From positions 1-64,000 of the IMG/VR virus record IMGVR_UViG_3300012971_000001: a DNA stretch of 64,000 nucleotides. One strand, written 5' to 3'. This DNA comes from a virus. A program made the translations under genes and the position numbers. The notes beneath the pieces are model-generated. The model searched no databases. It saw nothing but the letters and a program-made list of their open reading frames with translations, and had not been told where the DNA came from. Of the stretch, positions 39,785-45,963 are shown piece by piece (position 1 is the stretch's first letter; each line of letters opens with the position of its first letter).

Positions 39785-40375
39785 GTGATTACAGCAAGTC
39801 CAGCTACCCTGCGCAGGCTAATTCTTCAACGCCCCGGCACGCTGCTGCAGCCCATTCAACCCAAACCATTACCCAACCTGCAGCGATTCAACCTGATGGG
39901 CGGTGGTCCCGGCTCCGGATGTCATGGCGACCAGTGTGGGCGTCCTGCAGGCTCTGGATCGGAGCAGAGCCGTGCAGAGCGTGCTTCGGCAACATACAAG
40001 CCTTCGACCAGAGAAAAGCAGCGGATAGCAGACGAGTCGGAACGTGATCTTAGCATAGCGTTGAAGATGGACCGCACGCCCGACAACGCAGCCTTCGATT
40101 TGAAGATTCCTGCAGCACCACCAGCAAAGGGCGTCGGTGTGGAAATCAAGACGTTCATCGACAACTCGAACAGCAAGATCACGATGCACAAGGAATCGCT
40201 GGCGCGGAAGGTCAAGGCTGCTAAGAAAGAAAAGCTAAACGCGCATACGGTGGTGGTCGATAAGAGAGAACCCGGCACAGAACGCTACTTCTATCGCAAG
40301 GGCGTCGGTTCGTTCTATCTCCGCACCATGAAAGAAGTAAGCATCAAAGAATTGAGAGGGATACTAATCGCATGA
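39785..40375 (+). CDS. Putative virion effector 1: GGPGSG tag plus PD-(D/E)xK nuclease
   Basis: AGGAG then GTG 39785; GGPGSGCHGDQCGRP; E...NAAFDL...GVEIKT. Confidence 0.68.
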   Translation: MITASPATLRRLILQRPGTLLQPIQPKPLPNLQRFNLMGGGPGSGCHGDQCGRPAGSGSEQSRAERASATYKPSTREKQRIADESERDLSIALKMDRTPDNAAFDLKIPAAPPAKGVGVEIKTFIDNSNSKITMHKESLARKVKAAKKEKLNAHTVVVDKREPGTERYFYRKGVGSFYLRTMKEVSIKELRGILIA

Positions 40376-40650
40376 GCTACGAAGTAATCGGCGACAGCAA
40401 GCCGCTGGGACAGTTTGCCAGCAACAAGGGCTACACGGACCTGATAGACGCTGCAGATGCCGCAGCAGACAAGTATCCCGCACTGCAGGGGCTGTTCGAT
40501 ACGGGCAGGTCAAAGAATGTAGCCAAAGTCATCACGGAACTGAACACACTTGCGGCAACGGCTTCTAAAGATGTAGCTTCGACAGCAAGGACGCTGGTTT
40601 CACTCATTGCAGGGAAAAAGAAAATTGTCATATCGGATGGTGTCTCATGA
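40372..40650 (+). CDS. Small protein, candidate immunity for effector 1
   Basis: ATGA-coupled to nuclease; role inferred from position. Confidence 0.55.
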   Translation: MSYEVIGDSKPLGQFASNKGYTDLIDAADAAADKYPALQGLFDTGRSKNVAKVITELNTLAATASKDVASTARTLVSLIAGKKKIVISDGVS

Positions 40651-43417: not shown

Positions 43418-43546
43418 ATGGCTGACGAAGAAGAAAAAGAATTCGACATAGACTTGTCCGACGATCCCAACAGCAAGTGGATGCACCAGATGCGCGAGAA
43501 AAAGAAGGAGTACGAGCCAGAGCCGGATCCACTGGAGGACGAATGA
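43418..43546 (+). CDS. 42-aa acidic peptide, candidate ART inhibitor (not in ORF track)
   Basis: MADEEEKEFDIDLSDDPNSKWMHQMREKKKEYEPEPDPLEDE; GGAG RBS; ATGA overlap with next gene. Confidence 0.6.
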   Translation: MADEEEKEFDIDLSDDPNSKWMHQMREKKKEYEPEPDPLEDE

Positions 43547-45963
43547 GCTACGTCGACGAGATAGAAAATAATCTCTCTGACTTAGAAGAGTTCCTTGCCC
43601 GAATCGAGGCCGGCGGACCCGGCAGCGGTTGCCATGGACCGAACTGCGGGCGCCCGCCCGGTTCGGGCAAGGGAGGCACGGCACTGCACGATGCTCCAGA
43701 AGGCGCGCCAGGCGTCGGCACGACCGGCACGCTAATGAAGGACTTCGGCTGGAAGAAAGTGCCCGGTGGGGAAACTACCGTCAAAGGCCATCCGGCAACG
43801 ATGTACACGCATCCAACGCATGGCACGATGTTCGTGACCAAGAATTGGTACGAGCATTACAAGGCGGGCGAGAAAATCGGAGAAAAGACGGAGCTGGCCA
43901 AAGGCAAGCCACTCGCAGAGAAGCTGAAGACGTATCTGAAGGAGAACACGCCCCGGCCTGGTTCTGGTCCGGTAGCGCCCGCGCCGACGAAGCCTGCAGG
44001 CCCCAAACCGACCGGAACTACTACTCCACAGCCGAAGCCTATCCCTGCCACAGCCGCTCAGATCCCCAACCGGGACGCAGAGTTCAAGTTCAAGGAAGAC
44101 GCGGGCCATCTGGGCGGCGCCCATGACAAATATCTCTACACCGACAAGCTCGGAAAAGAATATCTGTTCAAGCCAGCAACAACGCTGAGCGGGGATGTCT
44201 CGCCGTTGATGGCACACGCCGATGAAATGGCATCGCGGATAGCGCAGAAGCTGAGGCCCTACGCATTCGAACACGCCAGAGCAGCAGAGCTTACCGTGCC
44301 CGGCCAGGGCAAGGTGGTCGGCAGCGTGCACGAGATGCTGCCGAACATCATGCAGAACAAAGACTTCAGCGGTGTAAAGCCGAAGGACTTAAAGCCAGAA
44401 GACTCGGCACAGCTGCAACGTGAGCAGGTAATCGACTGGCTGATCAGCAACCACGACTCGCATGGCGGCCAGTTCATCCGCAGCGAAGGCGGAAAAGTAA
44501 TCGGCATCGACAAGACGCAGGCATTCAAGTACTTTGGCAAAGATAAGCTGGATGTTGATTACCATCCGAATGCAAGCTACGGCGAGAAGCCGCCTTACTA
44601 CAATGACATGTGGAAGGCGGTGAAAAAGGGTGATCTGACAGTCGACCCGATGCAGTCGTACAAGACGATTCAGAAGGCACAGGCAATCCCTGATGATGAG
44701 TATCGCAACATACTCATGCCTTATGCCAAAGAAAGATTCAAGAACGACGACAAAGCCGCGAACGAATTCCTTGACAAAGCCGTTGGCAGGAAAAACGCTC
44801 TAAAGGCAGACTTCGAGAAATTCATCGGTGGTGTGTACGGCAAGCCGTTCACGTTCAATAATGGCTTTTCCGGCACTGGGAATCCTATTCCAAAACCCGC
44901 GGGCGCCGGACCGAAGCCACCGTTGCAGCCGGGAGATAAAGGCAGGCCAGCGCCGGTAGAGGAGCAGAAGCAGCGCCTGGCGGAGATGATACAAAAGCCT
45001 TCGGAAAAAGGCCAGGGCACGGCCGGCCACGTCATTGCCTGGGAACCGTATGTACCGCCAGATAATCCGCAGTTCAAATCGCGGATGGCTGAGGCACATC
45101 AAGTGGTGGCAGATGTGATGAGCAAGTACAGCGGCCCGAGCCAAAAATATCTGCATAATTTTGACGATGACAAGCGCTGGGAATGGGAAGCTAAAATCAA
45201 CAGCGGAAAATCTCCCGTAGATGCAGCAAAGGGCCTGGGCGTCTATCCAGAGGCATTTGCTAAGATGGGATTTTCGCCGGGAGAGATGCATGACATGATC
45301 GGCACCATCAAGGGCTGGACGGGCAGCTCGTCGGGAACGAATGGTACTAAGGTGCAGGAAGCAGCGCAGCAGATTATTAACGGCAAGTGCTGTAGCTCAA
45401 AGGTGGCTCGTGCCTTCGAGTTGGAGTACGCCTTAACGCAGGCAAAATTAGCCAAGCAAGTAGATTCGGCAGGTAAGCTCAAGATTCCGGTGTGGCGGGG
45501 CGTGAATGATACTGACGAGCCAGGTTACGCCAACCAATTAGAGGCAGCTGCAGCCAAGCATGACTTCGTAGAAACGGTCAACCGCGGTGCTGAGAGTTAC
45601 TCGACCAGCTTGGATAAAGCTAAGCAATTCGGTCGAGTCATCCTACAGATACACAACGTGCCCGCCAAGCAAGTGCTTACTTCAGCACTTACTAATCCCG
45701 CAGCATTTACAGCTCACCATCACGAAGCGGAAATGGTGGTTGCTCACAAGGGCAATCAGAAGCTGCTTGCGAAAGATGTGATCATCAAGCATTCGGGACC
45801 GTACACGGCGCTGCTAAAGTCGGAGGCAGAGAAAGAAAAAGGATCGTTGGTGCTAGATCTGACGGATGATGTGAACGCAGATTGGTATGCAATAGCTGCC
45901 AGACGTATGCATCTGCCACCAAATGAGGATTATAAGATCTTCGTTATGGAAGCTGTAGAGTAA
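43543..45963 (+). CDS. Putative virion effector 4: GGPGSG tag, HipA/PI3K-like kinase and ADP-ribosyltransferase
   Basis: GGAGG RBS for ATG 43543; YLFKP, DWLISNHDSHGGQF, IGID; VWRG / ESYSTS / HEAEMV. Confidence 0.75.
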   Translation: MSYVDEIENNLSDLEEFLARIEAGGPGSGCHGPNCGRPPGSGKGGTALHDAPEGAPGVGTTGTLMKDFGWKKVPGGETTVKGHPATMYTHPTHGTMFVTKNWYEHYKAGEKIGEKTELAKGKPLAEKLKTYLKENTPRPGSGPVAPAPTKPAGPKPTGTTTPQPKPIPATAAQIPNRDAEFKFKEDAGHLGGAHDKYLYTDKLGKEYLFKPATTLSGDVSPLMAHADEMASRIAQKLRPYAFEHARAAELTVPGQGKVVGSVHEMLPNIMQNKDFSGVKPKDLKPEDSAQLQREQVIDWLISNHDSHGGQFIRSEGGKVIGIDKTQAFKYFGKDKLDVDYHPNASYGEKPPYYNDMWKAVKKGDLTVDPMQSYKTIQKAQAIPDDEYRNILMPYAKERFKNDDKAANEFLDKAVGRKNALKADFEKFIGGVYGKPFTFNNGFSGTGNPIPKPAGAGPKPPLQPGDKGRPAPVEEQKQRLAEMIQKPSEKGQGTAGHVIAWEPYVPPDNPQFKSRMAEAHQVVADVMSKYSGPSQKYLHNFDDDKRWEWEAKINSGKSPVDAAKGLGVYPEAFAKMGFSPGEMHDMIGTIKGWTGSSSGTNGTKVQEAAQQIINGKCCSSKVARAFELEYALTQAKLAKQVDSAGKLKIPVWRGVNDTDEPGYANQLEAAAAKHDFVETVNRGAESYSTSLDKAKQFGRVILQIHNVPAKQVLTSALTNPAAFTAHHHEAEMVVAHKGNQKLLAKDVIIKHSGPYTALLKSEAEKEKGSLVLDLTDDVNADWYAIAARRMHLPPNEDYKIFVMEAVE

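Follow-up and report, generated by a model that had tools for sequence, protein, structure and literature searches.

What holds together four genes for enzymes of unlike fold that stand side by side among the head genes of a phage? The question is raised by positions 39,785 to 45,963 of the IMG/VR virus record IMGVR_UViG_3300012971_000001, where four predicted effector enzymes are encoded in a row and each carries the same glycine-rich peptide, which begins with GGPGSG. We refer to this peptide as the header (or tag), to proteins that carry it as tagged, and to the DNA analysed as the window, which comprises the first 64 kb (64,000 nucleotides, nt) of a 117,450-bp record with direct terminal repeats and a rating of 100% complete. 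The opening minutes of an infection are decided by proteins that the phage injects, which act in counter-defence, in host shut-off and against restriction, and outside a few model phages such proteins are unrecognisable by sequence. We find that the header is a real, selected, portable and widely shared module head. We further propose, with about even confidence, that the cassette is a polyvalent protein split into separate genes, whose header probably labels cargo for the head and a site of cutting by the head protease. Polyvalent proteins are a described class (Iyer, Burroughs, Anand, de Souza and Aravind, 2017), for which delivery with the DNA and processing by peptidases have been proposed (PMC5512222).

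A header peptide under selection

The tagged genes of the window, the small open reading frames (ORFs) between them and a paralogue of the last tagged gene are as follows (lengths in amino acids, aa).

39785..40375, + strand: P1, pre-sequence, header (nt 39902-39946) and predicted PD-(D/E)xK-fold domain; GTG start with AGGAG before it
40372..40650, + strand: P2, orphan ORF of 92 aa
40647..42059, + strand: P3, pre-sequence, header (nt 40734-40778), small 'GW' domain, Pro-rich linker, helical region and putative HExxH zincin-like peptidase
42062..42313, + strand: P4, orphan ORF of 83 aa
42310..43416, + strand: P5, acidic pre-sequence of 91 aa, header (nt 42583-42627) and predicted R-S-ExE ADP-ribosyltransferase (ART)
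43418..43546, + strand: P6, ORF of 42 aa, a detached C-terminal tail of an ART module with its own GGAG ribosome site
43543..45963, + strand: P7, pre-sequence, header (nt 43612-43656), 'GW' domain, predicted PI4K/HipA-like kinase, predicted R-S-ExE ART and tail
49924..50319, + strand: P8, small neck-module protein with a 21-aa leader (MRLSDAVAM...TIMA), GGPGSGRH (nt 49987-50010) and a small domain
49494..49937, + strand: small protein paralogous to P8 (E 6e-5), with a leader that ends IQA|GS and without GGPGSG

A six-frame scan of the window finds GGPGSG five times, always on the + strand (nt 39902, 40734, 42583, 43612 and 49987). The first four copies continue as CHG(D/P)(Q/N)CGRP (the Cys form) and the fifth as RHPGGG, so that a first-pass annotation, made from the letters alone, was right to assign one peptide to the four cassette genes and a fifth GGPGSG to the neck-module ORF at 49924. 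The whole record holds no + strand GGPGSG beyond these copies. A degenerate DNA pattern matches six times in the window (five times on the + strand and once on the - strand, at 52447) where 0.05 matches are expected, and none of 100 shuffles reaches six. The synonymous positions differ among the four Cys-form copies, and this use of different codons points to selection at the peptide level and not to recent duplication of DNA. The - strand match at 52447, which is probably due to chance, lies opposite an ORF of 1953 aa (52324-58185), a stretch of 64-66% G+C against about 55% elsewhere in the window.

The header starts at residue 40 of 196 in P1, 30 of 470 in P3, 92 of 368 in P5, 24 of 806 in P7 and 22 of 131 in P8. 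In P5 it therefore lies some way from the N-terminus, near which it had been placed. The public gene call of P3 is 418 aa long and uses an ATG start downstream of the header; since it begins 3' of the tag, automatic annotation can remove headers and so hide them from proteome searches. We also note an InPase-like protein (window 14087-14548, a weak inorganic diphosphatase match) that starts with the leader of the family (MKLATAIAYVA|A) but has no GGPGSG; in the wider set described below, six proteins contain an InPase domain as one of their tagged modules.

Four predicted enzymes of different fold

The catalytic domains that the first-pass annotation had assigned to the four cassette genes are all supported, those of P1 and the P7 kinase by structural models searched with Foldseek, that of P3 by its HExxH motif and the ARTs by profiles and motifs. 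An AF2 model of P1 built from nine sequences (predicted local distance difference test, pLDDT, 84) matches the SPARDA nuclease domain, archaeal Hjc and HincII at E values of 6e-5 to 1e-2, and residues D69, E84 and K86 are invariant in all nine sequences. By its model, P1 is a PD-(D/E)xK-fold domain that is nuclease-like, with a predicted nuclease activity.

In P3, the HExxH motif is invariant in eight of eight homologues and is followed downstream by a conserved Glu within TEIISMG. P3 matches phrog_33618 at 3e-36 and phrog_19443 ('minor head protein') at 1e-10 among the PHROG families, and its leads in the Atlas are clusters of MuF, VG15, DdrB-ParB, M90 and ATLF. These features of its sequence make P3 a putative zincin-like metallopeptidase. 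The N-terminal 150 aa of P3, comprising the header and the small 'GW' domain, are 54% identical to P7.

The ART of P5 is a paralogue of the ART of P7 (37% identity, E 1e-34). The C-terminal domain of P7 matches Pfam DRAT above the cut-off (5e-8) and P5 matches it below the cut-off (E 1.5e-3). All 15 members of the P7 ART family have an S/T residue and keep R and ExE without variation, and the conserved motifs support P5 and the C-terminal domain of P7 as predicted R-S/T-ExE ARTs. For the kinase part of P7, a model of residues 185-470 (pLDDT 88) finds PI4KII-alpha as its best Foldseek match (E 7e-6, template modelling score about 0.5), followed by PknA/B, CtkA, PI3K and HipT. Residues N303, H304, D305, H307, Q310 and D323 are invariant, and they make up the catalytic loop NHDxHxxQ and the metal-binding Asp in GIDK. 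A PI4K/HipA-like kinase fold is thereby the supported prediction for this part of P7. There are 98 P7 homologues besides its own record, and HipA_C is annotated for five of them. Sequence searches of the PDB with P7, P3 and P1 gave chance matches only, and a P7-family profile matched only NUDIX there, a domain that P7 itself does not have, so that this match was set aside.

The header across uncultured phages

A megablast search with 17.5 kb of the window found no match at the DNA level among 50,697 phage records, and judged by its sequence the phage is an uncultured one, far from cultured phages. The motif led to five other phage records (G001-G005, the window phage being G000), each with two to eight copies of GGPGSG that are all on the coding strand; reversed controls gave none. 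Four of these (G001-G004, 106-125 kb) are true relatives, with portal, protease/scaffold and neck genes in common and putative capsid proteins that are 55-68% identical. The header in the relatives stands either directly behind an 11-residue leader (for example MNLQTAITLLA|GGPGSG) or between the domains of polyproteins, such as a 1464-aa protein with four copies and a 676-aa protein with three. The leader follows the consensus M-N-L-x-x-x-I-x-L-x-A and is stereotyped both in the relatives and in 50+ small proteins. Across 61 instances of GGxGSG, about eight of which are seemingly unrelated, the preceding residue is Ala in 47 and position -3 is L, I or V in 52; position +7 is Arg in 27 and Cys in 25, and position +8 is His in 41.

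A profile of 36 columns built from nine Cys-form copies, in which the Arg form (GGPGSGRH) does not count, was searched against 1.84 billion protein representatives and matched 466 clusters at E<=1e-3, of which 50 reach E<=1e-10. The best 150 of the 466 matches hold 142 new proteins, in which the first tag lies at most 40 residues from the N-terminus in 105 and multiple tags are present in 52. The residue before the tag is Ala in 158, Lys in 45 and Gly in 20 of the 238 copies in these proteins. The 75 proteins of at least 250 residues, which were those scanned with Pfam, contain Zeta_toxin (8), InPase, Phage_Mu_F and NUDIX (6 each), AAA_33, ADPrib_exo_Tox and PI3_PI4_kinase (4 each), ATLF (3), and Phage_portal, ART-PolyVal, Peptidase_M90, SAM lyase, DRAT and GNAT (2 each). 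This set of domains corresponds to the repertoire of polyvalent proteins (PMC5512222), with head proteins in addition. With 466 clusters and these Pfam partners, the tag is seen in many phages together with head proteins and with domains of the effector type.

The pair of Cys residues in the header, invariant in the Cys form, invites the reading that the header is a metal- or disulfide-dependent anchor (C-x4-C) that stays uncut and holds the cargo on the scaffold, the portal or the DNA in the head. The headers of G001 run directly into zinc-ribbon-like CxxC pairs, as such an anchor might, and there is a precedent for packaging without processing in the N4 virion RNA polymerase (PMC5512222). 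The Arg form, however, lacks the Cys pair yet occupies the same positions, and many copies of the Cys form have a residue other than His at +8, the first pair being CH in 98, CQ in 31, CR in 22 and CN in 19 of the 238. The conserved residues before the header moreover resemble protease subsites, and we consider an anchor of this kind quite unlikely.

Other junction motifs, namely (W)xExLHPRxxxGxF, NPYHDARGRF and HDQRxHGRR, replace GGPGSG between modules in P0010, P0011, P0014, P0018, P0020, P0022, P0109 and P0111 and in G004 near 59186. These observations suggest a small set of interchangeable module heads. GGPGSG was also considered as a P-loop, by comparison with adenylate kinase papers, and this was rejected on the grounds that there is no K[ST] and that the motif lies between domains. 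The header is undescribed in the main texts of the open literature covered, and the matches to 'GGPGSG' listed there have no phage context.

Fission of polyproteins and the place of MuF

The window is a clear case of fission, in that tagged modules that are fused in relatives are separate genes here. G001 encodes a 537-aa protein with a header, a zinc ribbon, an HExxH peptidase, a GGGLGSGRH junction and a P1-type domain, so that the counterparts of P3 and P1 are one polypeptide in that phage. In the wider set, the P1-type domain is the tag-preceded last module of six polyproteins and stands alone behind leader and tag in four small proteins. The closest homologues of P7 (45-56% identity in the kinase) are 1000-1380 aa long and are ordered leader-tag-NUDIX-tag-GW-kinase-ART-tail, and in some of them HPRxxxGxF stands in for the tag at the same junction.

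Distant homologues of P7 carry MuF or VG15 in place of the tag. The tag is found in none of the 53 kinase homologues that bear MuF or VG15 versus 14 of the 45 without MuF (Fisher p 5e-6), a count over related sequences that do not form an independent sample, with MuF flags copied by hand from the homologue table. The kinase and ART of P7 are homologous to gp54 of mycobacteriophage prophiFSQJ01-1 (BK061312.1; 31% identity over 332 aa, E 5e-37), which is a VG15/MuF-like, kinase and ADPrib_exo_Tox protein encoded between portal and scaffold, and the P7 kinase matches its middle. An effector set independent of MuF, as had been supposed, thus agrees with the kinase homologues; against it stand the six of 75 tagged proteins that contain Phage_Mu_F and the presence of the window phage's own MuF type inside the tagged polyproteins P0135 and P0148. 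The MuF-like gene of the window lies between two neck/tail genes.

59986..60621, + strand: short MuF-like protein without an effector tail; Phage_Mu_F 27.7 bits, PHROG head morphogenesis

It had been described as a short MuF without a toxin tail. The absence of a tail stands, and PHROG head-morphogenesis families match, but the Pfam score of 27.7 bits is below the cut-off of 29.6. An HNH endonuclease gene and this MuF-like gene are adjacent (window 59480-60621) between the neck/tail ORFs at 58965 and 60695. In G004 a gap of only about 365 nt separates the counterparts of these two ORFs, and both G003 and G004 have their MuF homologues at other places; the pair looks like a mobile insertion.

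Genomic position and a candidate cleavage site

The head genes that bear on the position and processing of the tagged proteins are the following.

33411..36872, + strand: portal protein with intein (Pfam Phage_portal 6.6e-19, weak LAGLIDADG_3), upstream border of a 9-kb insertion
46053..47489, + strand: putative fusion of head protease and scaffold, labelled by synteny, by a His and a Ser that are conserved and by an acidic coiled coil in its C-terminal half
47490..48506, + strand: putative major capsid protein, labelled by position and conservation; a short variable N-peptide, then DFTA|AADY

In all five phages, the putative capsid protein opens with 14-17 unconserved residues, after which comes [FILV]-x-A|AAD[YF], in the forms DFTA|AADY, TISA|AADY, DISA|AADF, NVSA|AADY and SLQA|AADF. 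The gene at 46053-47489 is syntenic between portal and capsid gene in the four relatives, and its product keeps L/I-x-A where its conserved N-domain meets the acidic coiled-coil half. A head protease that would cut after Ala agrees, as circumstantial support, with the hydrophobic-x-Ala seen in the putative capsid proteins as well as before the tag.

Since the tag heads polyprotein modules elsewhere and hydrophobic-x-Ala occurs also in the putative capsid proteins, we read the cassette as a split polyvalent protein. Each enzyme begins with a variable pre-sequence ending in [LIVM]-x-Ala, followed by the header GGPGSG-C-H-G-x-x-C-G-R-P. Pre-sequence and header together would carry the enzyme into the assembling procapsid, where the head maturation protease would cut on the far side of the Ala, probably just as in the capsid protein. 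Once released, the enzymes would leave the head with the DNA and, at an early stage of infection, modify proteins and nucleic acids of the host. Loading, cutting and injection of the tagged enzymes are the steps that we infer.

Tagged genes lie within the head or neck block in G000, G001 and G004. In G001, one tagged gene of 109 aa is placed between portal and protease; in G004, the 1464-aa tagged polyprotein is encoded between the capsid gene and the next conserved head gene; and tagged counterparts of P8 are found at the same neck position in both. The portal, protease/scaffold and capsid genes of G002 and G003 are adjacent. The block between portal and protease in the window (36.9-46.0 kb) is a 9-kb insertion found only in this phage among its relatives. 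The location of the cassette between portal and prohead protease, as first described, is accordingly correct for the gene order of the window, but the protease label is positional and the location is not conserved among the relatives.

Several points weigh against a header that addresses the head and marks a cut. Tagged genes are also found far from head genes, at 10-28 kb in G001, 16-33 kb in G002 and 116 kb in G003. The pre-sequences of the window are 21-91 aa long, mutually dissimilar and unlike the 11-residue leader of the relatives. The hydrophobic-x-Ala match is short and lies in Ala-rich contexts, where it may arise by chance, and the two invariant Cys of the header hint at a function beyond a cut site. 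The count of tags and MuF domains given above carries its own limits. Finally, the protease and capsid labels are positional, with no match in Pfam, PHROG, NCBIfam, phage records or the PDB that would give them. Searches with tblastn of both putative proteins against the 50,697 phage records and of their profiles against the PDB found nothing, the genome has neither Pfam Peptidase_S78 nor Peptidase_Prp, and the N-domain of the putative protease matches only one unnamed PHROG family and a weak 'portal' family. Because no library match names the product of 46053-47489, its protease label is one that we infer. The MNLQ...A leader was also considered as a Prp-cleaved leader of the L27/80-alpha type; this was dropped, as there is no Prp gene and the spacing differs.

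The distance of tagged genes from head genes in G002 and G003 would suit a different explanation, by which the enzymes are cytoplasmic host-takeover or anti-defence proteins that are never packaged and the header is a structured linker, or seam, for module shuffling. The modules are clearly shuffled, with a tag at every module boundary, and the presence of HPRxxxGxF at the same junction in close homologues fits interchangeable linkers. A plain linker, however, should do without a fixed [LIV]-x-Ala ahead of it and without Cys, Gly and Arg at invariant positions, and it would be unneeded in the single-domain proteins of 74-200 aa that the tag heads right behind the 11-residue leader. The tag also co-occurs with portal and MuF domains, and the lack of DNA-level identity among its copies indicates that it is not a recombination site. 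We regard a linker of this kind as unlikely.

Extending the proposal of a split and addressed polyvalent protein, [LIV]-x-Ala with GGPGSG(C/R)H and its sisters (HPRxxxGxF) may constitute a general, unnamed 'load-and-cut' address label for the capsid that replaces fusion to MuF or portal, a generalization that we advance tentatively and at somewhat less than even confidence. With it, many uncultured phages would pack arbitrary enzymes into the capsid and free them as individual effectors for injection. Each lineage would in that case have the residue that precedes the header, Ala here and Lys elsewhere, matched to its own head protease. If the label is true, injected proteins could be predicted from sequence alone and listed in uncultured phages; it would explain how polyvalent proteins are assembled and dismantled, and it could serve as a means to load phage heads with foreign proteins.

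The small genes between the tagged genes

The small ORFs P2, P4 and P6 had been proposed as immunity genes paired with the first three tagged genes. Their tight coupling is confirmed: ATGA overlaps are present at the P1/P2, P2/P3, P4/P5 and P6/P7 junctions, and the remaining gaps are 1-2 nt. In a toxin-immunity arrangement, each small protein would neutralise the preceding toxin in the producing cell, which agrees with such translational coupling and has a parallel in the downstream immunity genes reported at some MuF-toxin loci (PMC5576092). The ATGA overlaps occur throughout the operon, though, and the coupling is therefore not specific to pairs of toxin and small ORF. Searches with tblastn and phmmer found no homologue of P2, P4 or P6 in the five related phage genomes (G001-G005). 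P2 has no relative in IMG/VR and no usable Atlas match, and neither P2 nor P4 belongs to a Pfam, PHROG or NCBIfam family.

The C-terminal tail of P7, which is conserved throughout the P7 family, gives an alignment with P6 (E 1.8e-4), and across the six genomes the motif DL[ST]DDxNxxW is confined to P6 and P7. P6 starts one base past the stop of P5, behind its own GGAG. Its alignment to the conserved tail and its start just past P5 indicate that it is no immunity gene but the tail of the ART module, split off as a gene of its own. Taken with the fused P1-type and peptidase domains of G001, which have no such gene between them, these results leave the pairing with immunity genes unsupported, and a toxin-immunity arrangement of the cassette appears very unlikely. 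P2 and P4 are lineage-specific genes, and none of the three small ORFs is a conserved part of the header system; a lineage-specific inhibitor role for P2 or P4 is possible.

Relation to known systems

Polyvalent proteins, MuF toxins and targeting peptides are already known, and the header itself is without description in the literature covered. The likeness to polyvalent proteins lies in the repertoire, which includes a zincin-like metallopeptidase, ART, kinase, InPase, NUDIX and ParB-like domains, and in the association with MuF and portal; single-domain small ORFs beside a large polyvalent locus have also been described (PMC5512222). Unlike those proteins, the modules here are mostly separate genes, with two enzymes only in P7 (kinase and ART) and one each in P1, P3 and P5. 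The main text of that study apparently shows no recurring [LIV]-x-A with GGPGSG(C/R)H, and it has 0 occurrences of 'linker' or 'glycine' (PMC5512222). The kinase fold here is PI4K/HipA-like by prediction; the study describes a truncated Ser/Thr-kinase clade (PMC5512222).

MuF-fused toxins, and the mycobacteriophage fusions of 'minor capsid + ADP-ribosyltransferase', resemble the cassette in their homologous kinase and ART cargo and their portal-adjacent gene. They differ in that P1-P7 have no Phage_Mu_F or VG15 match, the carrier being replaced by pre-sequence and header, and in that a conserved downstream immunity gene is not supported here.

In T4, the capsid targeting sequence is removed by the head protease. 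It is the sole feature common to diverse internal proteins and loads them into the scaffolding core (PMC3012670). T4 IPI-III and Alt are unrelated cargo, an ADP-ribosyltransferase among them, with a short N-terminal address peptide in common (PMC3012670). In the window, unrelated enzymes have the header in common, and their pre-sequences are dissimilar. In contrast to T4, there is no sequence relation, and the head genes of the window phage match none of the 50,697 phage records. The element here has two parts, an Ala-ended leader and a Gly-rich header; it stands also internally between modules and is found in hundreds of uncultured lineages, and its loading and cutting are proposed. Many inner-body and ejection proteins of the phiKZ/SPN3US type are reported to be head-internal proteins with propeptides, which the prohead protease trims at a short consensus site before ejection into the host (PMC10052503, PMC7411985). 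Phage group, protease and site are different, and a common Gly-rich header is apparently lacking there.

Further features of the window

A terminator-like hairpin stands just 5' of the cassette, assigned by consensus match only.

39663..39693, + strand: terminator-like hairpin with a 9-bp stem, 7 G-C pairs and a T-run

The first third of the 9-kb insertion (window 36916-39612) holds about seven ORFs without family, with one weak PHROG match, and the ORF at 38361 has a homologue in G004. The intein of the portal protein is about 450 residues long and lies between residues ~290 and ~745, and the matches of the portal protein in the relatives are split. The portals of G001-G003 are without it, G004 has a diverged intein at the same site, and a fragment in G005 matches the intein part only.

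Four of the six phages also have a single copy each of another conserved peptide, F(H/A)PPSL(K/A) (window 15653-15958; G001, G002 and G005). In the relatives, where a Pro/acidic stretch and then (R/K)F(L/M)DV come after it, the peptide is located close to the C-terminal end of tagged proteins.

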